Shown: in pieces, positions 42,967 through 64,000 of the stretch
Layout: every line of letters begins with the position of its first letter
Position numbering within the stretch: the stretch's first letter is position 1
Sequence record: KP869111
Strand: one strand, 5' to 3'
Origin: Escherichia coli O157 typing phage 13
Length of the DNA: 64,000 nucleotides
Program-made: the position numbers and the translations under genes
The notes under the pieces: model-generated
The model's database searches: none
Told to the model about the DNA's origin: nothing
The model's input: only the letters and a program-made list of their open reading frames with translations

Positions 42967-43066
42967 NNNNNNNNNNNNNNNNNNNNNNNNNNNNNNNNNN
43001 NNNNNNNNNNNNNNNNNNNNNNNNNNNNNNNNNNNNNNNNNNNNNNNNNNNNNNNNNNNNNNNNNN
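42967..43066. other. Run of 100 N at the junction between the two syntenic blocks
   Basis: Unresolved bases; sequence after it belongs to a different gene and to the opposite T4 orientation. Confidence 0.99.
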
Positions 43067-44924: not shown

Positions 44925-45024
44925 NNNNNNNNNNNNNNNNNNNNNNNNNNNNNNNNNNNNNNNNNNNNNNNNNNNNNNNNNNNNNNNNNNNNNNNNNNNN
45001 NNNNNNNNNNNNNNNNNNNNNNNN
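44925..45024. other. Run of 100 N
   Basis: Unresolved bases at the 5' boundary of the rIIA homology. Confidence 0.99.
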
Positions 45025-46554: not shown

Positions 46555-46563
46555 GGAAACATT

Positions 46564-47511
46564 ATGTACAATATCAAATGCTTGTCCCAAGAAGAACAGT
46601 TAGAAGCTTACGGCCTGGTTGAATCAGGCAAATGGACTCGTAAAGAAATTGCCGATTACTTCGACATTTCAACAGATACTCTTCGTAAGATTGTTAAGAA
46701 TTTTAAAGCAGAAGGCGTTGTCCCTGAAGCAAACGATGCCTCTTATGTAATCGAAGAAGTTCCAGAAAATGATGAACCTATTATCGGCGGACATCGTCCT
46801 GAAATCGTATGGAACGCGTCATCTAAATTTATTTCAATTATTGAAGGACGCGTAGCATACAATGCGACCCCATCAAGTCATGCAAATTTTGAAGAAATTA
46901 AAGCTAATCTGGTCGCAGGAAACCTTAGTAAAGCTGTCGAACTTATTAACATCAAGAAAGCTATTACTAAGTTTGTTGATGGTAATGTTACTATTGAAGG
47001 TGGTAGTTTATTTTATCAAGGTATAGAGATTCGTTCAGGGCTGGTTAACCGTATTATTGATTCCATGGAAAAAGGTGAAGACTTTAAATTCTATCTGCCA
47101 TTCCTTGAAAACCTGTTAGAAAACCCAAGCGAAAAAGCTGTACAACGTTTATTCGACTTCTTGGTTGCAAACGATATTGAAATCACTGAAGATGGGTATT
47201 TCTATGCATGGAAAGTAGTTCGTAAGGACTATTTAGACTGCTATAGTGGTACATTTGATAACTCCCCAGGTAAAGTTGTTTCAATGCCTCGTACTCGAGT
47301 TAACGACGATGATACTCAAACCTGTTCTCGCGGTCTCCACGTTTGTGCTAAATCTTATATTCGCCACTTTGGTTCAAGCTCAGATAAAGTTGTGAAGGTT
47401 AAAGTTCATCCACGTGATGTTGTATCCATCCCAGTTGACTATGGTGATGCTAAGATGCGTACTTGTCGTTATGAAGTAATTTCAGACGTTACTGAATTAT
47501 TTGCAGAATAA
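46564..47511 (+). CDS. rIIB: rIIB protein
   Basis: 315 aa versus 312 in T4; MYNIKCL... N-terminus and highly conserved C-terminal half. Confidence 0.93.
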   Translation: MYNIKCLSQEEQLEAYGLVESGKWTRKEIADYFDISTDTLRKIVKNFKAEGVVPEANDASYVIEEVPENDEPIIGGHRPEIVWNASSKFISIIEGRVAYNATPSSHANFEEIKANLVAGNLSKAVELINIKKAITKFVDGNVTIEGGSLFYQGIEIRSGLVNRIIDSMEKGEDFKFYLPFLENLLENPSEKAVQRLFDFLVANDIEITEDGYFYAWKVVRKDYLDCYSGTFDNSPGKVVSMPRTRVNDDDTQTCSRGLHVCAKSYIRHFGSSSDKVVKVKVHPRDVVSIPVDYGDAKMRTCRYEVISDVTELFAE

Positions 47512-47514
47512 TAA

Positions 47515-47540
47515 TTGGGGACTTCGGTCCCCTTTTTTTT
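47515..47540 (+). terminator. Rho-independent terminator after rIIB
   Basis: GGGGAC-UUCG-GUCCCC followed by T8. Confidence 0.65.
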
Positions 47541-47554
47541 CTTTAGGGGTAATT

Positions 47555-47842
47555 ATGATTCATCCATTTGACGTATCAGAATCCAAAATTGCTAATCTTC
47601 GTGGTCATCATAAGTGTAAATCAGTTTATTGTGCTAAATTGGTAAAACATCCTGGCGATGCACACTATGGCTGGTTAGAATGTGACGAAGTTGTTATTGA
47701 AATCCCACCGGTAGATGCAGAATATCTTGAAGAAGGTGACCGCATTTATTTTGGCGAACTACACATTAGAGGTATCTATGGTAAAGACGAACTTGGGACT
47801 GTTGAGGCTGAAGAGTCTTCCGACATTTATCCTGTCGAATGA
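47555..47842 (+). CDS. Hypothetical 95-aa protein
   Basis: Start at ATG with SD-like GGGGTAATT; Cys/His-containing. Confidence 0.5.
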   Translation: MIHPFDVSESKIANLRGHHKCKSVYCAKLVKHPGDAHYGWLECDEVVIEIPPVDAEYLEEGDRIYFGELHIRGIYGKDELGTVEAEESSDIYPVE

Positions 47843-47858
47843 GTTTTTGACTAGCGAA

Positions 47859-48335
47859 ATGAAGGTTAAGATCGCTGATACTGCTCGGTACTCGTTGAAA
47901 CAAGATCCAGGTCAAATAAAAGAAGACGTTGTTCGACGTTGTAAGGTTGCAGTCTTTGCAGAGTATGTAGTAGCAAATTGGCTAGACGGATATGTTAATA
48001 AAGGTAATGAAGACGTAGAAGACCCGTACACGTATGCATGGGACGTTTTAGCTCATCCTAAGTACTGTGGTCTACGCGTAGAAGTAAAGACCCATCAGAT
48101 GGATTCGAAATGGATTTCGGTTACCACAGGATACGGTGGTGATTATCCAGGTGGCAACGGAATCAACATAGGGCCCTTCTTGAACCATCGAGTCGCAGAT
48201 TGCATTATTATATTAGATGTCAAAGAAACCTCACCTGACGTCTTCTCTTATTCTATAAAGTTCGTGGGAGACCATGAAGACCTAAAGAAAATCGTCCGCA
48301 AGAGCAACTACAACGGGTGGTATCTTCATCTTTAA
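47859..48335 (+). CDS. denB: Putative endonuclease IV (DenB-like)
   Basis: 158 aa from the in-frame ATG; sits where T4 has denB after rIIB; the identification rests on position. Confidence 0.55.
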   Translation: MKVKIADTARYSLKQDPGQIKEDVVRRCKVAVFAEYVVANWLDGYVNKGNEDVEDPYTYAWDVLAHPKYCGLRVEVKTHQMDSKWISVTTGYGGDYPGGNGINIGPFLNHRVADCIIILDVKETSPDVFSYSIKFVGDHEDLKKIVRKSNYNGWYLHL

Positions 48336-48346
48336 TTTCATAAAAG

Positions 48347-48377
48347 TGTTTACAACTAAGTAGGACTATGATATAGT
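48347..48377 (+). promoter_or_regulatory. T4-type early promoter (palindromic subfamily)
   Basis: GTTTACaactaagTAGGACTAtgaTATAGTAGTCCTAtctaaa. Confidence 0.5.
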
Positions 48378-48403
48378 AGTCCTATCTAAAAGAGGATAAC
48401 ATC

Positions 48404-48667
48404 ATGAAATTTAAATTTTTCTACGCAAAACATAAAGTAACAGGCGAATTTGTTTCAATGTACAACACTGCAGATGACGAAGGGATGATTTATACCCATT
48501 TGGGTCTATCTCATTGGGACTCAGACGTGCCTTATATGTCATCTGAAGCCGAAATAACTCGTTTAGTTAATGGACATATGAACGACCATTTTAGTGTTAT
48601 CCTTTCTAAAGACCTTAAAGAGGTTATCAACAAAGGATATATGGAACTCGCGGAAGTTGAGATATGA
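48404..48667 (+). CDS. Hypothetical 87-aa protein
   Basis: ORF with SD GAGGA downstream of an early promoter. Confidence 0.5.
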   Translation: MKFKFFYAKHKVTGEFVSMYNTADDEGMIYTHLGLSHWDSDVPYMSSEAEITRLVNGHMNDHFSVILSKDLKEVINKGYMELAEVEI

Positions 48668-48859
48668 GCTCTAAAATGTGGATCGGAATATGGTTGCTTA
48701 GTATCCCAATGATTTGTATAATATTTTCAATTGTGTTGAGGTACTTATGAAAAATGCACTTCTTATTGTACTAAGATCAATTTGTGATACGGGTTTTTAC
48801 ATTGCATGTTCGTTCACTGGAACATGGTTGGCTTTAACATATTTTAATGTAATTTAATT

Positions 48860-48889
48860 GTTTACAACAAGGTAGGATTATGGTATAGT
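48860..48889 (+). promoter_or_regulatory. T4-type early promoter (palindromic subfamily)
   Basis: GTTTACaacaaggTAGGATTAtggTATAGTAGTCCTActgaaac. Confidence 0.5.
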
Positions 48890-48917
48890 AGTCCTACTGA
48901 AACATGAGGAACACAAA

Positions 48918-49118
48918 ATGGCTAAGCTTTTTAAAGATGTTGAAATTGGTGAAAAATTTGTTCTGAATAATGGTCAGCAGCTTATTCGTGTAGCTTCTAT
49001 CGCCGGACAAACTCATAACTGTATCGCCCCAACGTGTTGGACTCGATTTTTTATTGAAGATGACACTGAATGTTTAACTGTTGAAGAGCTTTTTGAACGT
49101 TCTGATATGACCGAATAA
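48918..49118 (+). CDS. Hypothetical 66-aa protein
   Basis: ORF with SD GAGGAA downstream of an early promoter. Confidence 0.5.
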   Translation: MAKLFKDVEIGEKFVLNNGQQLIRVASIAGQTHNCIAPTCWTRFFIEDDTECLTVEELFERSDMTE

Positions 49119-49194
49119 AATTGTACAAACTCTTGAGAGCAGAGTATAATGCTCTCATGGATTACAAAAACATTAATCAATTGAGGAAATTAGC

Positions 49195-49641
49195 ATGTCC
49201 AAATATTTAACTCGTAAAGACCTTCTGGCAGTTGGCGGTGAAGTTGTTGCAGTAGTTCGTAATGGCGAATACGGTTCTGAAGTTTCTAAAGAGTTTCGTT
49301 CTCGTGAAGGTTTTTACTTCTTTGTTAAAGGTTCATCTGATTGGCGACAAGTAGCAGCACGATTCTTTGTAGGACGTCAACGTTCTAAACAAGGGTTGGA
49401 TGCAATTCTTTCTCACATTCGTCAAGGCCGTTCGCAACTAGCCCGTACCATGGGCACTAATAATATTGAATATGATGTAATCTTTGTTGCAGCTAAGAAC
49501 ATGAAACCACTGACCACCGGTTATGGTAAAGGTCAATTGGCTCTGGCATTCACTCGCAACCATACATCAGAATATCAAACACTCACTGAAATGAACCGTC
49601 TTCTGGCTGATAATTTCAAATTCATTCTGCAGAGTTACTAA
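49195..49641 (+). CDS. ndd: Nucleoid disruption protein Ndd
   Basis: 148 aa versus 151 in T4; central region ...QRSKQG...LSHIRQ...RSQLART... and C-terminus KPLTTG...[13 protein letters not shown]...SEYQTL...EMNR...LADNFKF... match T4 Ndd. Confidence 0.88.
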
Positions 49642-49694
49642 TTTATACAGGCCCTATTAAGTTAGGCCTTTAATTTATTTTTGAGGTAATTAAA

Positions 49695-49841
49695 ATGGTA
49701 GCATGGATTATTGCATTGCTGTGTTGGTCGTTTTTATTCGTTAACACTTTAGTTACAGGCGAAACAACAGTATTTCAACAGGCCGTATCACAAGGTACCT
49801 TAGCGGTCTTAGCTCTTATTAACGTGTTAAAAGGCGAGTAA
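49695..49841 (+). CDS. Hypothetical 48-aa membrane peptide (below ORF-track cutoff)
   Basis: SD GAGG; single predicted TM helix; stop overlaps the next start (TAATG). Confidence 0.4.
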   Translation: MVAWIIALLCWSFLFVNTLVTGETTVFQQAVSQGTLAVLALINVLKGE

Positions 49842-49981
49842 TGATTAAGAAAATCTTAGCAGGAGCCTTCGGGCTCTTGTTGTTGCTTACGGTTCTGTAC
49901 TACGGTGTGATGTTTGGACTAATCCAAGTAGTGCTTTTCATTTCAGATGTTATAATGGATATTCGTTCATTAATATGGTGA
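49841..49981 (+). CDS. Hypothetical 46-aa membrane peptide (below ORF-track cutoff)
   Basis: Leu-rich hydrophobic core; translationally coupled; T4 has small membrane genes (ac, ndd.x) here. Confidence 0.4.
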   Translation: MIKKILAGAFGLLLLLTVLYYGVMFGLIQVVLFISDVIMDIRSLIW

Positions 49982-49985
49982 AAAT

Positions 49986-51394
49986 ATGCAATTGAATTCT
50001 CGTAATCTAAAAAGTATTATTGATAACGAAGCCTTAGCATATGCGATGTACACCGTTGAAAACCGTGCAATCCCAAACATGATTGATGGATTTAAGCCGG
50101 TTCAACGTTTTGTGGTCCATCGTGCGTTAGATTTGGCTCGTGGTAATAAAGAAAAATTTCATAAACTTGCGTCAATTGCAGGCGGTGTTGCAGATTTAGG
50201 TTATCACCATGGTGAATCTTCTGCACAAGATGCAGGTGCATTGATGGCTAACACATGGAACAACAACTATCCACTGTTAGATGGCCAAGGCAACTTTGGT
50301 TCTAGAACAGTCCANNNNNNNNNNNNNNNNNNNNNNNNNNNNNNNNNNNNNNNNNNNNNNNNNNNNNNNNNNNNNNNNNNNNNNNNNNNNNNNNNNNNAA
50401 AGCTGCAGCATCTCGTTATATTTTTGCTCGTGTAAGTAAAAATTTCTATAACGTATATAAAGATACTGAATATGCTCCAGCTCATGAAGATAAAGAACAC
50501 GTTCCACCAAAATTCTATCTTCCTATTATTCCGACAGTTCTTTTGAATGGTGTATCTGGTATTGCAACCGGTTACGCAACAAATATTCTGCCTCATAGTT
50601 TTAAATCGGTAAAAAAGGCTGTATTACAAGCTCTTCAAGGTAAAAATGTCACTAAGCCAAAAGTTGAATTCCCGGAATTCCATGGTGAAGTACATGAAGT
50701 TGATGGGCGTTATGAGATTCACGGAACATATAAGTTCACATCTCGCACTCAAATGCAGATAACTGAAATCCCATATAAATTCGACCGTGAAACGTATGTG
50801 AGTAAGGTTCTTGACCCGTTGGAAGACAAAGGTCTAATCTCATGGGAAGATGATTGTGGTGAACACGGCTTTGGGTTTAAGGTGAAGTTCCGTAAAGAGT
50901 ACTCGCTTCCTGATGATGAAGAGCTACGTCATGAAAAAATCATGAAAGATTTTAGTCTCATCGAACGTCGTTCACAAAACATCACAGTGATTAATGAAAA
51001 GGGTAAATTAGCAGTCTACGATAACGTAGTGGACTTAATCAAAGATTTTGTTGAAGTCCGTAAGACTTACGTTCAGAAACGTATTGACAACAAAATCCTT
51101 GAATCTGAAAAAGCATTTAAACTGGCTTTTGCTAAGGCACACTTCATCAAAAAAGTTATCAACGGTGAAATCGTGATTCAGGGCAAGACTCGTAAAGCTT
51201 TGACTGAAGAGCTAGCACAAATCGAAATGTATAAAGAACATGTCGATAAACTGGTAGGTCTTAACATCTTCCATATCACTTCCGATGAAGCACGTAAACT
51301 AGCAGAAGAAGCTAAAGCTAAGAAAGAAGAAAATGAGTATTGGAAGTCTACTGATGTTGTGACAGAGTACACTAAAGACTTGGAGGCACTTTGA
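49986..51394 (+). CDS. 52: DNA topoisomerase II medium subunit gp52, interrupted by an N-run (50315-50398)
   Basis: Both halves recognised as T4 gp52 (GyrA-like); halves sum to about 441 aa versus 442 in T4, so the 84 N stand for only about 1 nt. Confidence 0.9.
50315..50398. other. Run of 84 N inside gene 52
   Basis: Flanking codons are off by one frame, consistent with about 1 missing base rather than 84. Confidence 0.99.
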
Positions 51395-51465
51395 GTGCTA
51401 TAGCCTTAGGATTTCTCGGTGCAATAGCTGTACTAGTGATTTGGCTGTATTGGTTGGACAAACAT

Positions 51466-51490
51466 GATTAGGGAGCTTCGGCTCCCTTTT
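51466..51490 (+). terminator. Rho-independent terminator after gene 52
   Basis: GGGAGC-UUCG-GCUCCC followed by UUUUG. Confidence 0.55.
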
Positions 51491-51512
51491 GTGCATTTTT
51501 CTCACAAAACAG

Positions 51513-51540
51513 TTTACATGCGCTTCAATCATGATATTAT
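51513..51540 (+). promoter_or_regulatory. T4-type early promoter upstream of motA
   Basis: GTTTACatgcgcttcaatcatgaTATTATagacctatcaaaac (17-nt spacer). Confidence 0.5.
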
Positions 51541-51579
51541 AGACCTATCAAAACAAAACAACCAAATTGGAGAAATAAA

Positions 51580-52212
51580 ATGTCTAAAGTTACTTACATC
51601 ATCAAAGCTTCTGAAAACGCTCTGAATGAAAAAACTGCTGCAATAATGGTTTATATCATTAAGAACAACTTCACCACTGCTGCCAATGTCCGTGAAGCTC
51701 TGGAAGCAGAATACAATGCATCAGTTGTTAACTCTAACATTGGTGTATTGATTAAGAAAGGTTTAGTCGAAAAATCTGGTGATGGACTTGTGGCAACCGG
51801 CGAAGCAATGGATATTATCCAAAAAGCTGCAGACCTATTTGCTCAAGAAAATGCTCCAGAACTTCTTCAGAAACGTAACACCAGAAAAGCACGTGGAGTT
51901 ACTCCTGAAATGCATGAATTAGCAAACTTTGTTTTTGAAAATATTAAAGATAAAGTTGAAGTTAAAGAAATTGGTGAAAACCGTAGTAACTTAGAAGTTC
52001 GATTTGCAAAACGAGTTCTAGGCATTCGCCAAATTGAAATTCGACGAGATGGCGCTCTTAGAATCTTTGCATACAACATGTCAGAAACTGAATCAAAGCT
52101 GTTTACTTCTCTTGAAAATGATGTTAAGATTAAGATCGGTGGTAAATATACTTACATTGACTTCCCTAATGTGTCCAAAGAAATCATTACCCTTGTAACT
52201 AACGTACTGTGA
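51580..52212 (+). CDS. motA: MotA middle-transcription activator
   Basis: 210 aa versus 211 in T4; MSKVTYIIKAS... and VVNSNIGVLIKKGLVEKSGDGL match T4 MotA. Confidence 0.92.
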   Translation: MSKVTYIIKASENALNEKTAAIMVYIIKNNFTTAANVREALEAEYNASVVNSNIGVLIKKGLVEKSGDGLVATGEAMDIIQKAADLFAQENAPELLQKRNTRKARGVTPEMHELANFVFENIKDKVEVKEIGENRSNLEVRFAKRVLGIRQIEIRRDGALRIFAYNMSETESKLFTSLENDVKIKIGGKYTYIDFPNVSKEIITLVTNVL

Positions 52213-52222
52213 GGAATACGTA

Positions 52223-52552
52223 ATGAATAAGCTGAATATTATTAACGAACTTCGTAAATGTGCAGAACCTACTCAGGAAGGATGGGATATTTGGTACCAC
52301 GGTGCTTATTTAGGGACAATTGTAAAGATTAAAGCAGGCCAATATACGGTTATTCGTGAAAATAATGACGCGCCATTTGGTCTTCGTAAAAACTACATGG
52401 CAGCGATCAGTTCGTTTGTTGATGCAGCTTACGAAATCTATAAAGAAGATTATAAAGAGTATCAGCAGTCACAACCGGTTATTCGTTCGATTGGTGTAAA
52501 TAAACAAGCACAAAAATCTATTTGGCAACGTATTAAGGAATGGTTTAAATGA
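52223..52552 (+). CDS. Hypothetical 109-aa protein
   Basis: ORF with SD GAGGAA in the motA-asiA interval. Confidence 0.5.
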
Positions 52553-53010
52553 AATCATTTAAAGAACGTTTAGAGCTATTAGATTTGGCCTTGTCTCGTG
52601 AGACTCCTGAAAGTCTAGCAGAAAAATTCCAGTCCTACGGTTATAATTATTCTGCTGATGATATAATGAATGAAGTTCCTGAAATCTGTTGGCAAACGTG
52701 CTATTGGAACAATGACCAAAAAGTTCAACGTGTTATAGTATGTGCAGCTAATAGGTTTAAATTGAAGAGCGGTGGAACTCTGGTTATTCCTGGAGTTCGT
52801 CATTACTCTAAAGATATGGCTGAAGTACTTGATATAGTTGGTCCTCAATTAGTCTCGCAACAAGTTTGTGGCGATGACCAAGGCTTTATCGACCAATACT
52901 CTAATTACTGGACTCGTGAAGAAGCAATGATTATTGCAACATATGCTGGACAGGTACGTATTGAACGTGGCGGAAGTGAGAAAGAACTTTATTCAGAGGA
53001 CCTTTATTAA
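52549..53010 (+). CDS. Hypothetical 153-aa protein
   Basis: ORF with ATGA overlap to the upstream gene; no motif recognised. Confidence 0.55.
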
Positions 53011-53291
53011 TGAATATTAAACAACTCCAGAAAGATGCTATTGAATCACGTATCCAAGATATCAAACGTCTTAATCATATGATGGAAGAAAACTATGGTA
53101 TGTATGCTAATCAGCCTGGTTGGGATGCTTTAGACCATCCTTATTTGGTTAATTTATGTAAAGGTGATACGTTAGCAATTATTCGTGATGGGTTAAAACC
53201 TTTCTTGCGTGACATGTATATTAAAATGAACGAAGAAATTATTAGCTCGTTGCAATATCAATTAAGGAAATTAGATGATGAGAATAATTGA
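53010..53291 (+). CDS. Hypothetical 93-aa protein
   Basis: ORF translationally coupled (TAATG) to the upstream gene. Confidence 0.5.
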   Translation: MNIKQLQKDAIESRIQDIKRLNHMMEENYGMYANQPGWDALDHPYLVNLCKGDTLAIIRDGLKPFLRDMYIKMNEEIISSLQYQLRKLDDENN

Positions 53292-53493
53292 TTCTAAAGC
53301 GGATTATTTTAATTCTGTTAATGATAAGAATAAAGCTTTAATTCGCCACTTTATTACTGAGATGGGATATACCGACTCTAAAGATTTGAAAGAGCACATT
53401 ATCGAATGTTCTGTGGCTAAAAAGTTTTCTTTCACAGACAAATGTTTAAACGAGGTTATAAATCATTATGAACAATCTTGTAGCAAAACATGA
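53275..53493 (+). CDS. Hypothetical 72-aa protein
   Basis: ORF overlapping the upstream stop; could correspond to an Arn-like small protein but not verified. Confidence 0.45.
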   Translation: MMRIIDSKADYFNSVNDKNKALIRHFITEMGYTDSKDLKEHIIECSVAKKFSFTDKCLNEVINHYEQSCSKT

Positions 53494-53576
53494 TTTCAAT
53501 AAGGCTTCTGTCCATAAGGACAAGAAGAAATCAGAACTTCAATCTAAACGCAAACAAAAACATAAGGGTAAAGACT

Positions 53577-53876
53577 ATGCTTACTAAAATCAAAGAAAAT
53601 CCTGCCACTGAACTTGTTATTCGATGTGAAGAACTTGCAGAGCTTTATCAGGTTAACCGAGAAGTGTGTCGTAGTGTTATCGTAGATATGGCAGACGAAG
53701 TATGTTCTCGTATTCCTTTTAGTGTCGATTTCAATCACATGAAGCCTGGTGAAATCACTATCGTCTTTGGTTCTGACTATACTGAAGAACGGGCTCTTAA
53801 TGTCCTAGAATATGAAATGTCATTCTTCGACATACAGGACTACATTGATAGTTATAAGGAACAATATGAGTCATAA
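53577..53876 (+). CDS. Hypothetical 99-aa acidic protein
   Basis: Start trimmed to the ATG with SD AAGGGTAAAG (MLTKIKENP...). Confidence 0.45.
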   Translation: MLTKIKENPATELVIRCEELAELYQVNREVCRSVIVDMADEVCSRIPFSVDFNHMKPGEITIVFGSDYTEERALNVLEYEMSFFDIQDYIDSYKEQYES

Positions 53877-54027
53877 TCTTCAGAACGTAGTAGAGGCCGA
53901 ACGTGAGCGTGAGGCTTTAGTCTATAATGAACTATTAGTTCCATTCTTGGCCTTACACTCGTATGAACAGGAAGACTACATTGATTACGTTAAAAGCGTA
54001 GAAAAAGCCGTTTACAATCAACACTGA
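53866..54027 (+). CDS. Hypothetical 53-aa protein
   Basis: Start trimmed to the ATG with SD AAGGAA (MSHNLQNVVEAE...); overlaps the upstream stop. Confidence 0.4.
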   Translation: MSHNLQNVVEAEREREALVYNELLVPFLALHSYEQEDYIDYVKSVEKAVYNQH

Positions 54028-54073
54028 TAATGGTACTATATCCATATCAACTAAGTGGAATGAATAAAACGTT

Positions 54074-54346
54074 ATGAATAAAGACATTGAAATCGTACGT
54101 GAAATTATTACTATTGCTTCTATTTTGATTAAATTCTCTAGGGAAGATATTGTTGAAGACCGAGCAAGTTTCATCGGATTCTTGAATGAGATTGGAATTA
54201 AAAAAGATGGTCGGCAGCTAAATCAGAATTCGTTCAGAAAACTAATTACAAATTTAACTGCCGAAGAAAAGAAAACACTGATTAGTGAATTCAATGAAGG
54301 TTTTGAAAATATTTATCGTCATTTAGCGATGTATTCTAACAACTAA
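54074..54346 (+). CDS. asiA: Anti-sigma-70 factor AsiA
   Basis: 90 aa as in T4; MNKDIEIVREIITIASILIKFSREDIVE... near-identical to T4 AsiA as recalled. Confidence 0.93.
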   Translation: MNKDIEIVREIITIASILIKFSREDIVEDRASFIGFLNEIGIKKDGRQLNQNSFRKLITNLTAEEKKTLISEFNEGFENIYRHLAMYSNN

Positions 54347-55006
54347 TTATTTAGCCCTTCCTAGTATTCGGATCGCTTGGTTGCATATAGCCGCTAAGCG
54401 ATCTTCCTCAAGTATATTACTCCCCTTATACCAATACATCGTCACAGTTCCAGCATAGATGTTATCCAAATTAAAGTATGGACAACTATACATATAAGAA
54501 AGTTCGGCAGTCTTAGATTTTGTAGGCAAAAATGCAAATTCTGATTTAGATGAGAAATGACGGCCACTTAAATGAATTATATATTCATTGGCCGTTTTAT
54601 CCACTGGGAATCCGCCAAGGGACTTTTCAGAAATTGTGCTAGGTAGTTTGCCTTCATAAGCTATAAGGTCGACAAAATAATTTAAGTTTTTAGGTCTGAA
54701 AGAATACACAGCACTAAAATCTGCACCAGATGAGATATGAACTATTTGCAGTTGTTCTAGAGCCGCAGATTCAAAACGTAAAGCTCGTTCTTTTTGGATT
54801 ATTTCAGTATAAGTATCATACTTAGCTCTTACATAATAATCCAGCAAAATACTTCCTTTGTACCATATTAGTGCCATTAGGAACAAAAGAATAATTACCG
54901 CTACTCGGGACATTAAAACCTTTCCAGTAGCGTTATCTTTGAAAATACGATCTAGCAACCCAAATAGAATATCACTAGGCGAAAATGATACTTTTGGTGT
55001 TGCCAT
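54347..55006 (-). CDS. t: Holin T
   Basis: 219 aa versus 218 in T4; FSPSDILFG...DNATGKV and the periplasmic domain match T4 holin; convergent with asiA. Confidence 0.93.
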   Translation of the reverse strand: MATPKVSFSPSDILFGLLDRIFKDNATGKVLMSRVAVIILLFLMALIWYKGSILLDYYVRAKYDTYTEIIQKERALRFESAALEQLQIVHISSGADFSAVYSFRPKNLNYFVDLIAYEGKLPSTISEKSLGGFPVDKTANEYIIHLSGRHFSSKSEFAFLPTKSKTAELSYMYSCPYFNLDNIYAGTVTMYWYKGSNILEEDRLAAICNQAIRILGRAK

Positions 55007-55015
55007 AATACCTCC

Positions 55016-55567
55016 TTACTTAAAGATATTTATAATCGCTTTGATAATAGATTTGTTTTCAAGGTCAGGGAATTTAGGGAATTCGCCGCCAAGATGTTCA
55101 TGTTTTTCTAAAAGGGCAAAGAATTTTTTGAGCTCTTTAAATTTTCGTTTTTCTTCTCTACTAGCAACCTCTGCGTCAATAAGAGAACTTAAAACACTGA
55201 ATAATTTATAGAGTTCATGAATTTTCTTATCACGTTGAACTACGCGTTTATATGCTTCATCTTCCTTCCACCCGTCGTCGGTCCAAATGTCAAATTCACC
55301 GGGTTCTTCTGTAGTAACATTTTGAAGAGCACCTGGAGTGTCAATAACAATTTTTTGCTTATCATAAGTCCATACCGTTTTTCCACGATGGTCTTCAACA
55401 TATACCCATTCTTGCTCGCGTTCGTCAAATATAACAGCATAGCCTTCTTTAGGGTCTAAAGGTTTTTTTGGTGTCGAATGAGCCGGAAATCCTACGCCTT
55501 TTAATGGTTTATAATTTTCTTCTTTGTAAAATTCTTTAGTGTCAAAATAATAGTGATAGAGTTTCAT
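55016..55567 (-). CDS. 38: gp38 tail-fiber assembly chaperone (T4 type)
   Basis: Start set to MKLYHYYFDTKEFYKEENYKP... (T4-like N-terminus); the ORF-track start 18 nt upstream lies inside a hairpin. Confidence 0.85.
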   Translation of the reverse strand: MKLYHYYFDTKEFYKEENYKPLKGVGFPAHSTPKKPLDPKEGYAVIFDEREQEWVYVEDHRGKTVWTYDKQKIVIDTPGALQNVTTEEPGEFDIWTDDGWKEDEAYKRVVQRDKKIHELYKLFSVLSSLIDAEVASREEKRKFKELKKFFALLEKHEHLGGEFPKFPDLENKSIIKAIINIFK

Positions 55568-55598
55568 ATTATAAAAAAGGGACATAAGTCCCTTCTCC

Positions 55599-58500
55599 TT
55601 ATGCTAAACGAACGATATAGTTAAAAGCAACGTTTTTAACTGTGTTTTCTGTATTTCCTGTGGCATTTACAGTTATTGTATGTCCATGGGAACCAATTGC
55701 AACAGTATGAGAATGAGCACCAATACCTACCGAATGGGTATGAGCACCAATACCCACAGTATGAGCATGGTTACCTGTGGTACTTGTGGTTCCTGACCAA
55801 GAGTGTGTATGGTTACCTTCTGAAGAAGTTTTGGCTATATTCGACCCTGCAGTAGCACCGTTCACGGTTCCAGTGAATTTAGCGTTGGCGTTTGCACCTA
55901 CACTATTATATCCGTCATAGAATATGTTATTGGGTATGCCAGCTTGTATCTGAGGACCTGAGCGCGCATGTTGGTGGTTACCTGCAGCACTTGTAGTTCC
56001 ACNNNNNNNNNNNNNNNNNNNNNNNNNNNNNNNNNNNNNNNNNNNNNNNNNNNNNNNNNNNNNNNNNNNNNNNNNNNNNNNNNNNNNNNNNNNNNNNNNN
56101 NNNNNNNNNNNNNNNNNNNNNACCGTATGGTTATGGTTACCTGTGGTATTACTGGTTTTAGTACCATAATCAAAGCTTGAAGATGTTTTAGTACCATAAT
56201 CAAAGCTTGATGTGGTTTTAGTACCTAAATCAGTATTAGATGCTGAAGCACTATGGTTATGAGACTTAATACCATCAGCTTCTGTACTTAATACATCACG
56301 CCCAGATGGTTTACCTTTAATCGTCTGACCACGCATATCGGGCAGAGTGCCGGAAGGATACACCGCAGCTAACTTAGGATACAAGCCAGTATCAAATGTT
56401 TGACCTTCCATTATGGCATAACCTTCAGGAGGTGTATCAGTAGGCCAAGGAATCGGAGCACCAATAGGATAACTTGAGACAATATCTGTCTTAAGGTTAT
56501 TTATTGTGGTATTCAAGTTAGCAAAATTACCAGAACCGCCGGTGATATTACCATCAGTACCAATACGAACATTACCAGCGCCTAATTTACCAGGAGAGTA
56601 NNNNNNNNNNNNNNNNNNNNNNNNNNNNNNNNNNNNNNNNNNNNNNNNNNNNNNNNNNNNNNNNNNNNNNNNNNNNNNNNNNNNNNNATCACCGTTTTTA
56701 TTAAATTCCCAACCTAAATCCTTTATAATTGCGCCAGTAGAAACGCCGTCACCACCTTCGTGATAGTGAACTCTAAAGTTACCACCATTAATTAAAGTAC
56801 CAATAGAATAGCAACTATTATTTTGAACGTATCTTTGTTTCACAATAGGAACATAAGTGCTTGTATCTGTTCTATCAATATTCATATAGAACGGAGCACG
56901 AACGTTTTCATTATTCTGAGAAGCAAAAGAACCGGCTCCAGCAGGTCGTGCAGTATCAGTACATTCAGCGTCGATATATGCCGATTGTCCTAATTGCATA
57001 CGGTAATTAGGAGAAATGCGACTATGACTAGTTATAACAACAAGTTTATTATCATTATCAACGGTCACCATATTACCGCCAGCACCATCATCACCTAACG
57101 TAACAGAATGGCGCATTTGAACCATACCGTTGTTAAGAGAAACACTCAATGGGCGAAGGTTAGAAATACCACCATTTTCACCTGCATCTTTAAGTGTAGG
57201 TATAATATGCAAAGACGCTTCAGAACGACGGAAAATAGCTCCATATTCAGCATTGTAAATACGGAAAGCATCTGCGGTATTGCCGATTTTAACTTGACCG
57301 GTAATAGAACCACCGCCGGATAAAACAAGCCCGTTATCCATAGTAACTTGTCCGGATAATGTACTTAATCCATTAACTCTAAGACTTCCATCGGTGATAA
57401 TGCTCCCTCTTGCATTCAGTTGTCCATTAATTTGTGTTACAACAGGTCCCACAGTTTCTGAACCGGTTGGAGCTACGCGCTGAGAATAAAAATAATATCC
57501 CTGGCCGTCAGCTACTTCAAAAACTGTTTCACGATTACGATCGCCAGATGCGTTAAATGAATTACCCCATGCTTTAACAGTTACATAGCTTTTATTCTGA
57601 CCAGCACGAGTACCGCCTTCCCACAAAATTTGCTTAGTGCCATCAATTGTAGTAGTTGGAGCGAATGTTAGCCCAGCAGTAGAATTATTAGCTGCTAAAT
57701 ATATGCCGTTATATATTGAAAGCTGCTTAACAGATGTAATACCGCCATCAGCATAAAACATTACATTATTAGAGCCAGTTACTAGTTTAAGAATACCCGG
57801 GTTAATTTCCATACCTTGTTGGGTATTGATATTCATCTGACCTGTACCACGGAAATAGTGGTTCATTTTACCACCAGCATTGTACCCGATATGGGTTTGT
57901 CCGTCTCCAGCATTGTTATTATCAGCTTGTGTTTGAACAGACAAGAGAGCAGCATTTGTACCAGGCATAATCCATGTGGTGCCTTGGTCCTCGGAACGAC
58001 CAAATATACCTTTACGAGTACTACGGAAACTGTCAGGAGTAATAGAAGCAACAGAATTCCAATTACCTACTAAATCATAAACACCCTGCTTAATGTATTT
58101 TAAACCAGTGGCAGCATCACCCAAAGCAATATATCTTTCTCCCATTGGAGTAGGAGAGCCGTAGTTATTGGTATTTTCATCAGTGGTAATTGTGCCAATA
58201 GCAAGTGAACGACGTAATACCATTGCGCCATCATTACGAAGACCCATTAATTTAGTAGTAAGTGTATTTCCGGTCCACCAAGAAATTTCATCATTCTTAC
58301 CAGTTTGAGCTGAAGCGATTTCATGGTAAATAGTTCCACCTGATTTAGCTCGAACTTTACGAAGATAGTTTATACCATTTTCTTCACCTGTTCCAGGATA
58401 AACATATTGAACTAATGACTGTGAATCATATTGTCCGAATGCTTTTGTGTCTAAAACAATGGTTTTCGTATTAACTTGTGGAGCAGAAACTATACCATTA

Positions 58501-59081
58501 GCGGAGTTAATATTGCCTGACGCAGAAATATTACCTGCGCGGACCTCAATACTACCAGAATCTACAATAAAATTACCATTACGGTTAAAGACCCAGTGTT
58601 TAGAATTGTCTGGAGCTGTAGAATCAATATAATGAACTCTAAATGAGCCTTCGCTTACTAATGTACCTACTGAAAAAGTACCGTCTTTATAACGTTGCTT
58701 AATCAAAGGGTGGTATTCAGAAGTTGAAGTAGTTGAACTCAAATCTGTAAAGATAGGGGCTTTATTTGTGTGTTGGTTAGCCCAAGCGCCATTTCCAGCA
58801 GTTTTTGGCAAGAATTCAATATACTTTCCTGCATAAACAAACTGGTTTCCATTAAGATTATACGTGCCGTTTTGTAAATAATCACCATTTTGAGTTACAT
58901 TACCGTTAATATCCCCGCCCTTAGCAAAGCCTAGGCTAATAATATTACCGAGGTCATCTTTAGTAAAAAGAGTTCGATCTTTTAAGTTTATCGCTAATTC
59001 GCCTTCGGCTAATTGTGCTGCAGTAGGATTAACTCCTGCTACTTTGCTTCTTTTAAATTGTATCTGTTTTAATGTAGCCAT
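55599..59081 (-). CDS. 37: Long tail fiber distal subunit gp37 (two N-runs inside)
   Basis: Large ORF between genes 36 and 38; C-terminal tip rich in G-x-H-x-H motifs as in the T4 gp37 needle domain. Confidence 0.9.
56003..56121. other. Run of 119 N inside gene 37
   Basis: Unresolved bases; reading frame maintained across it. Confidence 0.99.
56155..56244 (-). repeat. 30-bp tandem repeat (about 2.5-3 copies) inside gene 37
   Basis: gttttagtaccataatcaaagcttga(a/t)g(a/t)t repeated at 56155, 56185, 56215; encodes repeated DYGTKT(S/T)SSF decapeptide near the receptor-binding tip. Confidence 0.8.
56601..56687. other. Run of 87 N inside gene 37
   Basis: Unresolved bases; length is a multiple of 3 and frame is maintained. 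Confidence 0.99.
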
Positions 59082-59089
59082 AAGTCCTC

Positions 59090-59755
59090 TTAATAATAGC
59101 CGAAATCTTGAACAGAATCTTTAATTACAATCTGGTCGAAACGAGGAACATGATTAGCCTCAGACGCCGGATTCTGTGAGAAAAAGTTTGGTGCTGTTAA
59201 AGTACCAGTCATGGTATCGCCTTTACGCAATACACGGGAATTTGCGTTATCCGTAACAATATTTATTCGTCCATCAACATAATCTTTTCTAGTAAGGTCA
59301 TTCGCTGCTATAGGAGCAGCCGCATCACTTCTTACTTGACCAGCTGCCGACACAACGCCTTTTGTATTAATATCACCATTACGTGTATTAATTACTACAG
59401 TTCTACCCGCTGTTCCTTGTGATGATTTAAAACCAATACCATACCACGAAACAATATCAATATTTGCTGTAACAAAAGTAGCTGCATCTCCATTACCAGG
59501 ATAAATACCAGATTGATTTGTATTGTTTATAGCATATGGTATTTGAACACCGCCGTTAAATGTTACCTTTGATGCATAAGTACCACCATTTGCTTTAGAA
59601 ACGAAATCATTATCAGCAGCTTGTGGCTTATTATATTCTGAATAGAGTTTAAACGTTTTATACAGGACGTCATCACCTGCTGGCATTAAAGGGAAATTAC
59701 CTTGATGCCATATAACGGCACCGCCAGTTGTACTACCAGCTTTTAAATCGGCCAT
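59090..59755 (-). CDS. 36: Long tail fiber distal connector gp36
   Basis: 221 aa as in T4; position between genes 35 and 37. Confidence 0.92.
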
Positions 59756-59779
59756 AGTTGTCTCCTTATATGTATACCA

Positions 59780-59787
59780 TATTTATA
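59780..59787 (-). promoter_or_regulatory. Late promoter TATAAATA upstream of gene 36
   Basis: Exact TATAAATA on the minus strand about 25 nt before the gp36 ATG. Confidence 0.55.
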
Positions 59788-59794
59788 CAAAAAT

Positions 59795-59816
59795 GGGAGA
59801 CCGAAGTCTCCCTAAA
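59795..59816 (-). terminator. Rho-independent terminator after gene 35
   Basis: GGGAGAC-UUCG-GUCUCCC followed by AUUUUUG on the minus strand. Confidence 0.55.
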
Positions 59817-59817
59817 T

Positions 59818-61009
59818 TTATTCTGGTGCTTCTTTAAATTCTTGACCAAATACCTTACCAGTATCAGTTGAAGATTGAGTAGGTAATGTCATTATGTCTG
59901 GAGCACTTAAAGATTCTGAAACATAATTTACACGAATACCATTCGTACCAAACTCAGCAGGTTTTGAAACGCTTCCATTACATGATACTTCAGTGAATAT
60001 AACGTTTCTTAATCCACCTTGCCCGACTGGAGCTGTACGATAACAATAAATCGTGAACCCGTCAGCACCAGCAGGAATTTCTACGTAGTCTTCATATATC
60101 TTCCATTCACCTGCAGCCCCATCAAAGTTTATATCCTTAAATGAAATAGGTGAAGTAGAAGGAGATTTAAAGAAACGAATAGAAAGTCGTGTCGTCCCTT
60201 GTGCTAACAAATCGGCATCGGCCATTAGTTGGAATTTCATATAAAGGAAATCTCCAGGCTTCAATTTATACCCAGCGAGAGGTGTAATAACAGATGCTGT
60301 AGGCATCCTTTTAATTTCGTTATTAGTACCTCCAATGGCAGATAAAAATGTGTCTGACGATTCATACGTACGTCTAGGGAAGCCGGTAGCACCAATATCA
60401 TCGATCGTGTCGTACACAACATCAAGTGGTGTACTATAGTCGGTTGAAGTTTTCTTATTACTATACTTAATATGTTCTAGTGCTATAGCATTCTTACCAG
60501 AAATATAAAATGCAGAATAAGAAATGTCCACTATATTTAAAACTTGTTGAGCTAATGGAATAGCAGAACTCCCAGCTTTAGTAAACCATGCAAGAACTTC
60601 TGGTGGAAAGTTTGTTTTAGCGTTAGTAACAAGAGCAAATATAAAATTTGAAGCATATGTGTCCATGAAAGTAACAAATGCACTTGACGTGGCGTCGTTT
60701 TCAGTAGAGAAATTATATGTCTTAGATTCAACTACTGCACCTGTTGTAGGATTTATTACACGAACGTTTAATCCAACGGAAAAAACCTGGGACCCAAGTG
60801 GATTATCCTGGAACTTAATATAAGCAGGAGATGTTGATNNNNNNNNNNNNNNNNNNNNNNNNNNNNNNNNNNNNNNNNNNNNNNNNNNNNNNNNNNNNNN
60901 NNNNNGGGCAAGAGCCCGCTATGCTTAATTTAAATCGTACTGAATTGCTTTCCGATAAAAATGGCGTTTGGACGTATCCTTGTCCAAACTTAGCCATAAA
61001 TTTTTCCAT
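59818..61009 (-). CDS. 35: Long tail fiber hinge protein gp35 (N-run inside)
   Basis: MEKFMA...LSESNSVRFK... start and position between 34 and 36; the two parts join in frame if the 67-N run is removed (about 374 aa versus 372 in T4). Confidence 0.85.
60839..60905. other. Run of 67 N inside gene 35
   Basis: Unresolved bases; zero-length join restores the frame. Confidence 0.99.
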
Positions 61010-61017
61010 AATACCTC

Positions 61018-64000
61018 TTATTCAATCCACTCGAATTTAACAGATTTATTCACAGGGTCTGGAATAATGCGGACATTACCAATCCTTAAGAAATCCCTTA
61101 TTGTCAAGTTTCCGATTGTTGCATTATCAGAAGGTAAAGCACCAATATCAGATGGCTGAGGAGGGTTACCCCCATCAAATACTTGAACAAAACTTGACCA
61201 AGAATTTTTAGTTTTCTGCCATGTACGAGTCCAACGGGTTGTACGTGCTTCTGGGGTTGTTGGATAAGTAATCCAATCTTGGTAAAGTGAATCAAGTGTA
61301 TTACCAAACTGAGTCAATGTACCAGGAGATTTAACTTCTTCGCCACGTTCTAAGTATGGAAGCCCAGTCACTTCATTAGTTTTTTCAACCATTTTAAAAT
61401 AACCTGGGAACTGGTTATAAGTGGCTGAATCGTTAATATCAATTGACCAGAATCCTACATTATCAGATGTTGGCGCACGGGTATATAAATCGGATGTTTT
61501 AGTACCCTGAGAACGAATTCTCGAGTTAACAGTCAAACCGCCAGAATTTATAGTAGCACCATTGGCAATGATTAAGCCTTCACCAATTGTAATCTGACCG
61601 GATTGGTTATTAATTGATAATGGACGTAATCCATTAAATCCACCGGTCTGATCACCAGATGCAGTAAGCATAAAATATGTGCTGCCGCCATCATTGCGAA
61701 TAAAGAATCCATAATCACCACTAATTGCTCTGAAAGCATTTGCAGACTTGCTAATGAATTCACCATTGGCTGTAACTGAACGACCAAATGTTGCAACGCC
61801 ATTCGCATTTAACGTGCCTGAAGCGTTAACATTTATTGGCATCACAGTACCATTAATGCTAAACGTTATATTCCCAGCTTTATTACGTTGAGAATAAAAG
61901 TGATTAGATGTTTCATCGCCAACTTCAAATACAGTAGAACGTGTTGTATCTGAACCACCACCAAATTCATTTCCCCAAACTCTGATAGTCATAGTTTGAG
62001 CAGGATTTGTTCCGGTCTGAGGTCCTTTTTCAAAAATCAGTCGAGTAGCTGTTCCAGAGTTAGAAATAGTTAATGTACTATTTGCCGAAACTGAACCACC
62101 AAACGTAGCAGTACTAGATGATACAAGAGGGGCACTCAGATTCGTTTGTTGGGTTAAGGTTAGTGAACCATTAACCGTCTGTGCAATGTCCCTACGAATG
62201 AACTGAGATGAATCTAGACCATCTAATAAATTACTATCTATGGCTTTAGCTTTCAACGGCAAATAGTTAGCAAGTACACGGTTTAATTCATATGGAGATA
62301 TAGCATAGCTATTTTTTTCATATGATTCTAAAGGTTGCGTTGAACCAACTGTATCATTACCAACGAATGTAATAGAACCAGATGAAGTTTTAACGAATCC
62401 ACGAATCGCCGTAGTAGCAGCCCATGTTGGTTCAGACTGGACAATCCATTTTAAATTCTTAGGAGATACAGCAGTATTAGCAGAAGTTCCTGTTACAGTT
62501 TCAGCCCGAGTAGCAACCTTAATTACGCCTTCAGACGTTTCAGTGGACTTAGTCCCTAAAAGCTTTTTAGGAGTAATAAGAACATCATCTAAAGTTCCTG
62601 CATTAGATTCTGCCTGAGTCGCTACGCGAAGTGTACCACGTTGTGTTTCATTTGCTTTAGAAATATCAAGAGTATAATGGTTCCACAAGGTTCCTTCTTC
62701 AATAAGTCCGGAATCAGAATTAACACTGGTACGGTCAGAAGAATCAAAATGAGTTTTAATTTTCAGTGGAGTTGAGATACGAGTATCGTCAGTTCCAGTA
62801 TCAAATTCAACTTGCGTAGCAAGTTCGGCTATGCCGGATAATCCTTCCGTAGCTTTCCTATCATTTAACGTCTTAGGCGTTACTGCACGTGTATAATCAG
62901 TCCCAGCATTAGTTTCTGCTTGCGTAGCAATTTCAATTAAACCAATACGTCCATCAGTAGAAGTTTTCTTATGTAGTGTTTCAGGAGTTACTACAGCGTG
63001 AGAATAACCTGCTTGTGATTGACCAGCAATTACTTCACTATCAACAGCTAAAATTACTGCACCTTGTTGAGCATAAGTTGCTTTATATTGGTCAAGGGCT
63101 TTAGGAGAAATAGTTAAATTATTTACGGTTTTATTATAAACGTTAGTGCCTGCAGCACCACGAGTTTCAGCAGGAGTAGCAGAAGTAGTTGATACATATT
63201 TAACTATACCTGATAGTGTTTCAGAACCCTGACGTGCCTGCAATTTCTTAGGTGTAATAATCGTTGTGTCATCAAGACCAGCATCGGTTTCAGTCTGAGT
63301 AGCAATTTCAGCAAGACCGCGACGAGTTTCAGTTGCTGTACGCTCATTTAGTTTTTTAGGCGTAACAATAGTATCGTCCACAAATGATGCTGTGGAATTC
63401 TGGTTAACTTGTGCTGTTGTAGCAATTTTAGCGATACCACGTCGAGCTTCAGTTGCTGTACGATTTGCCAATGTTTCCGGAGTAATAGCCACTTCTTTAG
63501 CTGGAGTATTCTCTAAATCAACATTTGCTTGCGCTTGAGTAGCAAGAGCAATAACACCTAAACGAGCTCGTGTAGCATCATTTCCAGCATCAACACGTTC
63601 TACCGTAGGGACATTCTGTTGCACAACCCAATAGTGAGTGTCAGAATCAGTGTCTTCGATATACGCTAATTCTAATACAGGAACATATGAAGTAGTGCCA
63701 TTGAATTCTAGTTCAGTAACAGAGACCCATTGAGCATCAGGTGGATATTCAGAACGTTTAGGGAACTGAAGCAATGCAACAGAAGAAGCAATTGTATCAC
63801 CTTCGGCAGCTTTAATTTTTACTGTTTGGCCTTTACGCATGTAGTTCATTGAAATTTTAACAGTGTCACCACTCAAAATTCTGGTAGGCAGCGTAAGATT
63901 AATAGTTCCGGTTGTAGCGTTATTTGTGCCAAAAATAAGAACTTCTTCATTTGGACGAATATTTGAATCCGCACGGATAATACGAAGACGTGATTTCTGG
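61018..64000 (-). CDS. 34: Long tail fiber proximal subunit gp34, C-terminal about 990 codons (5' part beyond window end)
   Basis: Frame open to the window edge (the ORF-track M at 63876 is a TTG, not a true start); ...SGDTVKISMNYMRKGQTVKIKAA... through ...KFEWIE matches T4 gp34 from about residue 300 to the C-terminus. Confidence 0.93.
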   Translation of the reverse strand, partial: QKSRLRIIRADSNIRPNEEVLIFGTNNATTGTINLTLPTRILSGDTVKISMNYMRKGQTVKIKAAEGDTIASSVALLQFPKRSEYPPDAQWVSVTELEFNGTTSYVPVLELAYIEDTDSDTHYWVVQQNVPTVERVDAGNDATRARLGVIALATQAQANVDLENTPAKEVAITPETLANRTATEARRGIAKIATTAQVNQNSTASFVDDTIVTPKKLNERTATETRRGLAEIATQTETDAGLDDTTIITPKKLQARQGSETLSGIVKYVSTTSATPAETRGAAGTNVYNKTVNNLTISPKALDQYKATYAQQGAVILAVDSEVIAGQSQAGYSHAVVTPETLHKKTSTDGRIGLIEIATQAETNAGTDYTRAVTPKTLNDRKATEGLSGIAELATQVEFDTGTDDTRISTPLKIKTHFDSSDRTSVNSDSGLIEEGTLWNHYTLDISKANETQRGTLRVATQAESNAGTLDDVLITPKKLLGTKSTETSEGVIKVATRAETVTGTSANTAVSPKNLKWIVQSEPTWAATTAIRGFVKTSSGSITFVGNDTVGSTQPLESYEKNSYAISPYELNRVLANYLPLKAKAIDSNLLDGLDSSQFIRRDIAQTVNGSLTLTQQTNLSAPLVSSSTATFGGSVSANSTLTISNSGTATRLIFEKGPQTGTNPAQTMTIRVWGNEFGGGSDTTRSTVFEVGDETSNHFYSQRNKAGNITFSINGTVMPINVNASGTLNANGVATFGRSVTANGEFISKSANAFRAISGDYGFFIRNDGGSTYFMLTASGDQTGGFNGLRPLSINNQSGQITIGEGLIIANGATINSGGLTVNSRIRSQGTKTSDLYTRAPTSDNVGFWSIDINDSATYNQFPGYFKMVEKTNEVTGLPYLERGEEVKSPGTLTQFGNTLDSLYQDWITYPTTPEARTTRWTRTWQKTKNSWSSFVQVFDGGNPPQPSDIGALPSDNATIGNLTIRDFLRIGNVRIIPDPVNKSVKFEWIE

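Follow-up and report, generated by a model that had tools for sequence, protein, structure and literature searches.

Matched decapeptide and nonapeptide repeats in the needle stem of gp37, the long tail fibre distal subunit of an Escherichia coli O157 typing phage

The window, that is, the whole stretch of 64,000 nucleotides analysed here, was taken from the sequence record of Escherichia coli O157 typing phage 13 (KP869111). Positions 45025-64000 were found to be 100% identical, N-runs aside, to the genome of E. coli O157 typing phage 3, a Mosigvirus (NC_041863.1 / KP869101.1). The typing phage 3 sequence is a genome that has already been published and annotated, and the gp37 repeat treated below is an object already known. 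Gene 37, which encodes the distal subunit of the long tail fibre, was located on the minus strand at 55599-59081 from the open reading frame list and its translation. As read in the window the gene has 1160 codons, a figure that includes the padding of two N-runs; the true gp37 is 1093 amino acids long. The segments of gp37 that are free of N were 100% identical to FDG79_gp106 of NC_041863.1, annotated as 'long tail fiber protein distal subunit'. Downstream of gene 37 lie a gene for a gp38-type tail fibre assembly chaperone of the Tfa family (55016-55585, minus strand), which matched phrog_105 ('tail fiber assembly', E = 3.6e-50) and bears the same label in NC_041863.1, and a holin gene; gp36, gp35 and gp34 lie upstream. 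On the strength of the gp38/Tfa-type chaperone gene and the gene neighbourhood, the locus was assigned to the T4-type arrangement, in which the C-terminus of gp37 is itself the adhesin. A Tfa/gp38 gene accompanied this family of tips in every case examined.

The preliminary description of this DNA had recognised the C-terminus of gp37 as a T4-type needle of His boxes and iron, and homology searches bore this out. The C-terminal 278 residues of gp37 are the part that matches the T4 tip crystal chain 2XGF; comparison with 2xgf_A using phmmer gave E = 1.4e-87, with query residues 20-297 aligned to chain residues 2-242, end to end and including the C-terminal strand. The needle is preceded by a collar (knob) domain at true residues 846-893 (56319-56462, coordinates converted by hand), which was detected with Pfam PF07484 (E = 8.9e-11; 42 bits against a curated cut-off of 24) and aligned with the collar of 2XGF. 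This domain, and all features of the tip that follow, are on the minus strand.

Eight HxH motifs were found in the tip, three on the ascending and five on the descending strand, flanking a variable head. His box 1 (SHNHS, 56253-56261) marks the stem base on the ascending strand and aligns with H883/H885 of T4. The decapeptide array of three units (56142-56231) makes up the part of the ascending stem strand that lacks His, and directly downstream of it lies His box 2 (GNHNHT, 56127-56135). His box 3 (GNHQHA, 55968-55976), the last of the ascending strand, has a true spacing of 14 residues from His box 2, and the two together make up one 14-residue distal module. The head, or tip domain, between His boxes 3 and 4 (55812-55967) spans 55 residues from HxH to HxH and aligned poorly to the T4 head. 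On the descending strand, His boxes 4 (GNHTHS, 55803-55811) and 5 (GNHAHT, 55761-55769) are again 14 residues apart and form the descending partner (55761-55811) of the 14-residue distal module. They are followed by a nonapeptide array of three 9-residue steps, TVGIGAHTH / SVGIGAHSH / TVAIGSHGH (55680-55760), which contains His boxes 6-8; Tandem Repeats Finder reported a period of 27 for this region at 55692-55769. The C-terminal strand, which returns into the collar (55602-55679), is near-identical to the C-terminus of T4 gp37.

The three tandem 30-nt units that had been noticed in gp37 were confirmed. Tandem Repeats Finder reported a period of 30 at 56154-56232 (2.6 copies, 87% matches, score 123), and in register with the peptide the units, of 30 nt each, occupy 56202-56231, 56172-56201 and 56142-56171. 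In pairwise comparison 25/30, 20/30 and 19/30 nucleotides were identical. An exact direct repeat of 26 nt recurs at 30-nt spacing across both unit junctions, which is far above chance. The middle unit is hybrid-like, joining the head of a DYGTK unit to the SSF tail of the first unit. The placing of the repeat had to be corrected. It does not stand immediately before the GxHxH region, as had been thought, but between His box 1 and His box 2; and where it had been assigned to the tip of the adhesin, by homology it belongs to the ascending stem strand, at about T4 residues 893-912, against a T4 tip at residues 932-959 (PMC6957217).

Eight N-runs were counted in the window by script, two of them in gene 37. 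The first, of 119 bases (56003-56121), is represented in NC_041863.1 by 'TC'; the second, of 87 bases (56601-56687), by 'AAA', one Phe codon. The flanks of both runs thus all but abut in the deposited genome, with 2 and 3 nt between them. Both had been counted with the repeat region, but only the first falls within 55599-56300, the part of the gene concerned. The extra bases, 117 and 84, are both multiples of 3, and masking of real in-frame insertions was considered. This was rejected on account of two other N-runs, at 50315 and 60839, whose 83 and 64 additional bases throw gp52 and gp35 out of frame; that both gp37 runs are in frame is accordingly put down to coincidence. Runs of 100 N at 42967 and 44925 connect pieces that do not lie side by side in the deposited genome. 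A search of the flanks found no repeat longer than 15 nt for 7 of the 8 N-runs of the window, and this, with the two short bridging sequences in NC_041863.1, refutes the proposal that the runs are assembly breaks induced by repeats. The N-runs are scaffold padding of the wrong length and have no bearing on the repeat.

The state of the record bears on whether the repeat, or its copy number, might itself be an artefact of assembly tied to the nearby N-runs. The window is a scaffold-like draft, one of its eight N-runs ends 20 nt from the array, and in the source study short reads were assembled with Velvet into 1-7 contigs per phage (PMC4429339). The array is nevertheless free of N, the finished genome has 2 and 3 nt in place of the neighbouring runs, and two GenBank entries, those of typing phages 3 and 6, carry the identical sequence, with a RefSeq copy of each. 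The three-unit architecture also occurs in lambda and in 197 of the 291 phage records matching the array region, the 197 being those that cover at least 80% of the query. Because a stretch of equal length is present across the phage collection records, the array is not regarded as an assembly artefact, and the chance that it is one can be called negligible.

Published work was used to place these features in the needle. The chain doubles back at the head, so that the needle is six-stranded (PMC9603124; PMC12609058). [quoted passage not shown] The tip of this phage shares with that of T4 the collar, outgoing and returning HxH stem strands, decapeptides that separate His boxes 1 and 2, GIGAHxH units close to the C-terminus, the C-terminal strand and a gp38 chaperone gene downstream. 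The 2XGF fold is an interdigitated trimer with six His at each site in octahedral coordination of Fe. Decapeptides, nonapeptide steps and HxH motifs number 2, 2 and 7 in T4 and 3, 3 and 8 in this phage. Exactly two stem indels were found against 2XGF: 10 residues are missing from T4 at the middle decapeptide and 9 at VGIGAHTHS. From His box 3 to His box 4 the head is 55 residues here and 37 in T4, and the two are hardly alignable. Since the receptor contacts of T4 map to its tip, and since the head of this phage is longer and unrelated to that of T4, receptor specificity most likely resides in this divergent head, as judged from the alignment.

In T4, G921 touches F970 of another subunit (PMC6957217). 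From that contact an antiparallel register of i + j of about 1891 was inferred, by which the decapeptides of T4 (893-912) would face His boxes 5-7 (980-1000) and the seven irons would be evenly spaced. An AlphaFold2 monomer model of a close homologue (P0003), built with an alignment of 46 sequences, gave pLDDT 51.8 and pTM 0.18, and such a model of a single chain is not informative about an obligate metal-bound trimer.

The preliminary description had presented the array as a source of host-range variation. In the form considered here, the decapeptides would be a tip repeat prone to slippage or recombination, and rapid changes of copy number would alter the host range. Such events could act on the 26-nt direct repeat with its 30-nt spacing, units 1 and 2 are 80-93% identical in DNA in the T4-like clade, the only one where this was seen, and copy number across the family ranges from 1 to 4. 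Duplications in the C-terminal region of gp37 are also reported, according to secondary citations of Tetart 1996, to have expanded the host range of T4, and they may or may not have included this segment. The collection records argue otherwise. Among the matches listed, every one that spans the array has equal spans in query and record. Stem and head have one and the same overall length in the 40 closest relatives listed, apart from a discrepancy of 1 nt in one of them, and all close relatives listed have three units. Copy number thus did not differ among the close relatives listed.

The DNA of the units pointed in the same direction in most lineages, where it has diverged at synonymous sites: in most genomes the units of one array share only 50-70% of their nucleotides and yet encode near-identical peptides. 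A search for concerted evolution was negative, since the identity of paralogous units in one genome (0.52-0.66) did not exceed that of orthologous units in different genomes (0.64-0.69). Arrays whose units are divergent in DNA but alike in peptide, with paralogues no closer than orthologues, are accordingly old, and in most lineages they appear stable. Ongoing homogenisation or turnover of the units was dropped as a candidate on these identities, with the T4-like clade as a possible exception. Furthermore, the array lies in the stem, outside the part that contacts the receptor in T4 (932-959; PMC6957217), and copy number did not vary on its own among the cultured phages or cluster representatives described below. 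A rapidly changing host-range repeat is for these reasons considered unlikely. What stands of the original proposal is that natural homologues do vary in copy number, between 1 and 4 units; what does not stand is the array as a free-running source of variation, as its copy number is tied to the number of nonapeptides.

That tie was examined by counting decapeptides and 9-residue HxH steps in homologous tips, with the two numbers expected to be equal everywhere. Three sets were scored. The first consisted of 100 unique C-terminal domains from database homologues and IMG/VR loci, and the second of 107 scorable representatives of 50%-identity clusters obtained by an exhaustive profile search. The third comprised 11 cultured phages, namely T4, F26, G2285, SP18, BCH953P2, CkP1, JenK1, 9g, lambda, a P1-like phage and a Felixounavirus; the genera Tequatrovirus, Mosigvirus, Gaprivervirus, Karamvirus, Nonagvirus and Lambdavirus are covered in addition to the last two. 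The counts were equal in 98/100 unique homologues, as (2,2) in 42, (3,3) in 50 and (4,4) in 6, with 2 off the diagonal; in 107/107 cluster representatives, for n = 1-4 and many different head lengths; and in 11/11 cultured phages, the divergent Felixounavirus being only a rough fit. The homologues share descent, and the counts are to be read as events that are not fully independent. The make-up of the expanded arrays differs: n = 3 occurs as A, B/A-hybrid, B, and n = 4 as A-B-A-B or A-A-A-B. Expansions with such different make-up must have arisen more than once, and the matching is therefore not merely a matter of shared ancestry.

The two exceptions, L005 (3 decapeptides and 2 nonapeptide steps; 83% identical to the gp37 of this phage) and L047 (2 and 3), are intact open reading frames, both from uncultured IMG/VR contigs. 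A mismatch of one unit may be tolerated in them, or the sequences may be defective.

The spacing of His boxes 1 and 2 was quantised, at 32, 42 and 52 residues among the 100 unique homologues and at 22, 32, 41/42 and 52 among the cluster representatives. A 14-residue module (HxHSLSGSTSSAGx) was present 0, 1 or 2 times, and its number on the ascending strand equalled that on the descending strand in 100/100 and 107/107 cases. With n decapeptides and m such modules, the outgoing strand has a spacing of 12+10n residues from His box 1 to His box 2, and its last His box follows 14m residues further on; on the returning strand, the first and last His boxes are 14m+9n residues apart; and the number of HxH motifs is 3+n+2m. 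For this phage n = 3 and m = 1, giving 8 HxH, and for T4 n = 2 and m = 1, giving 7. The rule that pairs the numbers of decapeptides and nonapeptides is strongly supported by these comparisons of sequence.

The reading preferred here is that the DxGTKTxSSF decapeptides serve the stem of the gp37 needle as a structural module, neither contacting the receptor nor hypervariable; a probability of about 0.8 is given to it. Each chain would run from the collar to the head and then double back, the trimer forming an antiparallel needle of six strands, which a row of irons would hold together through the HxH motifs that bind them. The outgoing strand would present His box 1, n His-free decapeptides and His box 2, and at matching height the returning strand would present n 9-residue steps of the form xVGIGAHxH. 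One decapeptide and one nonapeptide would together make one extra rung and hence one extra iron layer. Physical pairing of the two is suggested by the topology, the one published contact and the co-variation of the counts. The stem of this phage would be one rung, or about 2.5 nm, longer than that of T4 and would hold an eighth iron per trimer. Copy number would change by unequal recombination, and a change would be retained only where both arrays, which are about 400 nt apart, change together. The 10 and 9 residues per rung imply some drift of register, for which this scheme does not account.

The sequence of the decapeptides is also compatible with a surface function. The Ser/Thr-rich units could be exposed along the side of the stem and, besides their structural part, do some binding of their own, either in weak contacts with LPS sugars or in docking of gp38/Tfa during folding; avidity would then rise with copy number. 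In favour of this, the units vary at positions 6-9, which are rich in S, T and N, with D-x-G-T-K and the terminal F almost invariant, and a Tfa/gp38 gene always accompanies the family. Mutagenesis in T4, on the other hand, maps contact with LPS and OmpC to the tip subdomain (PMC6957217), and pairing of the strands is the simpler account of the strict match with the nonapeptides. An additional binding role is thus held to be quite improbable, and the structural reading is retained.

The same layout is found beyond T4-type phages. Stf of lambda (orf-314) and many prophage fibres of E. coli and Shigella have HxH spacings of 42, 14, head, 14, 9, 9 and 9; lambda Stf has three decapeptides and 8 HxH motifs, with a Tfa chaperone gene downstream. 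It differs in its N-terminal shaft and the sequence of its head, and it is the side fibre of a siphovirus, whereas gp37 here belongs to the long tail fibre of a myovirus. These fibres make up the 'T4- and lambda-based RBP family', of which O157 typing phage 3 is a listed member (PMC9659904). The tips of the long and short tail fibres (LTF and STF) of the Felixounavirus Bas63 likewise have a collar, a six-stranded needle, a head and rows of HxH; they have 6-7 HxH and are more divergent in sequence, and the parts consulted of their description contain no rule relating decapeptides to nonapeptides (PMC12609058). The gp38 adhesins of the T2/T6 type (PMC3157838) have glycine-rich motifs and hypervariable segments, and their host range changes through recombination at the conserved motifs on either side of the variable segments, which is the classical picture behind the original proposal. 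They are unrelated proteins, each encoded by a separate gene and capping gp37; in this phage gp38 serves as a chaperone, and the C-terminus of gp37 acts as the adhesin.

The description of the Bas63 tips (PMC12609058) had already noted that the number of HxH motifs varies with the length of the needle. A search of open-access text found no phage paper that spells out DYGTK or DLGTK, which is no proof that the pairing rule is unpublished. The strand-matched repeat grammar is accordingly put forward as a tidy but modest addition. For the window itself the finding has small weight, since the phage genome is published and the repeat is a conserved element of a tip of solved structure. A practical gain is the caution that N-runs of a scaffold cannot be read as hidden sequence, as their wrong lengths disrupt even essential genes.

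For the family as a whole, a wider proposal may be made, although it is a tentative one and is considered somewhat doubtful. The length of the needle would be a quantised and evolvable trait of all tips of the T4/lambda type, altered by whole iron rungs through paired indels of 10 and 9 residues and, separately, by paired 14-residue modules. Tips of the L005 and L047 type would then be transient intermediates, and the number of rungs would tune the reach of the head through O-antigen or capsule and would thereby play a part in host range. The pairing rule provides a simple and checkable grammar for a very widespread receptor-binding tip, with more than 2,000 homologues in phages and prophages. 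In the design of chimeric tail fibres for host-range engineering, the two arrays should stay matched whenever a stem is swapped or resized.

The window was compared with the deposited genome of Escherichia coli O157 typing phage 3 (NC_041863.1; Mosigvirus), and the two were not colinear. Window positions 20000-42966 corresponded to NC_041863.1 383-23297 in reversed orientation, while 45025-64000 corresponded to 149951-168578 in forward orientation. Because order and orientation differ in this way, the two runs of 100 N, at 42967-43066 and 44925-45024, are arbitrary contig joins, consistent with the Velvet drafts of 1-7 contigs per phage described by the source study (PMC4429339). Two other N-runs, of 84 N (50315-50398) and 67 N (60839-60905), stand where the finished genome has 1 nt and 3 nt, respectively; the first disrupts the reading frame of gp52 (DNA topoisomerase II subunit) and the second that of gp35, so the neighbouring ORF calls are artefactual.

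The portion of NC_041863.1 corresponding to window 20000-42966 includes a gene annotated as an aroF-like DAHP synthase. Beyond the window, kpsF (annotated as arabinose-5-phosphate isomerase), glmU and phosphoheptose isomerase are annotated consecutively at NC_041863.1 120941-123829 (16942-19830 of locus L002). These are sugar-nucleotide and LPS-precursor genes, which are unusual in T4-like phage.

The head of gp37, between His boxes 3 and 4 (window 55812-55967), spans 55 residues versus 37 in T4 and can scarcely be aligned with the T4 head. Database proteins from Shigella and E. coli (P0001, P0003 and P0004), with 87-89% identity overall, have near-identical heads. Several homologous prophage tail-fibre proteins (P0060, P0063, P0071, P0074 and others) carry discordant source names, including 'phage terminase large subunit' and 'tape measure protein', as well as unexpected Pfam combinations; these entries appear to be mis-annotated, or to be fusions at contig ends.

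Two database homologues have stems of extreme architecture: P0090, with three decapeptides and two 14-residue modules giving 10 HxH, and P0245, with one decapeptide and two modules; the strands are matched in both. Among the homologues scored, decapeptides and nonapeptide steps were unequal in number only in two IMG/VR loci, L005 (IMGVR_UViG_3300030021_000020; 3 versus 2) and L047 (IMGVR_UViG_2713896732_000001; 2 versus 3). Both ORFs are intact, each on an uncultured contig, and their fibres may be evolutionary intermediates or else defective.
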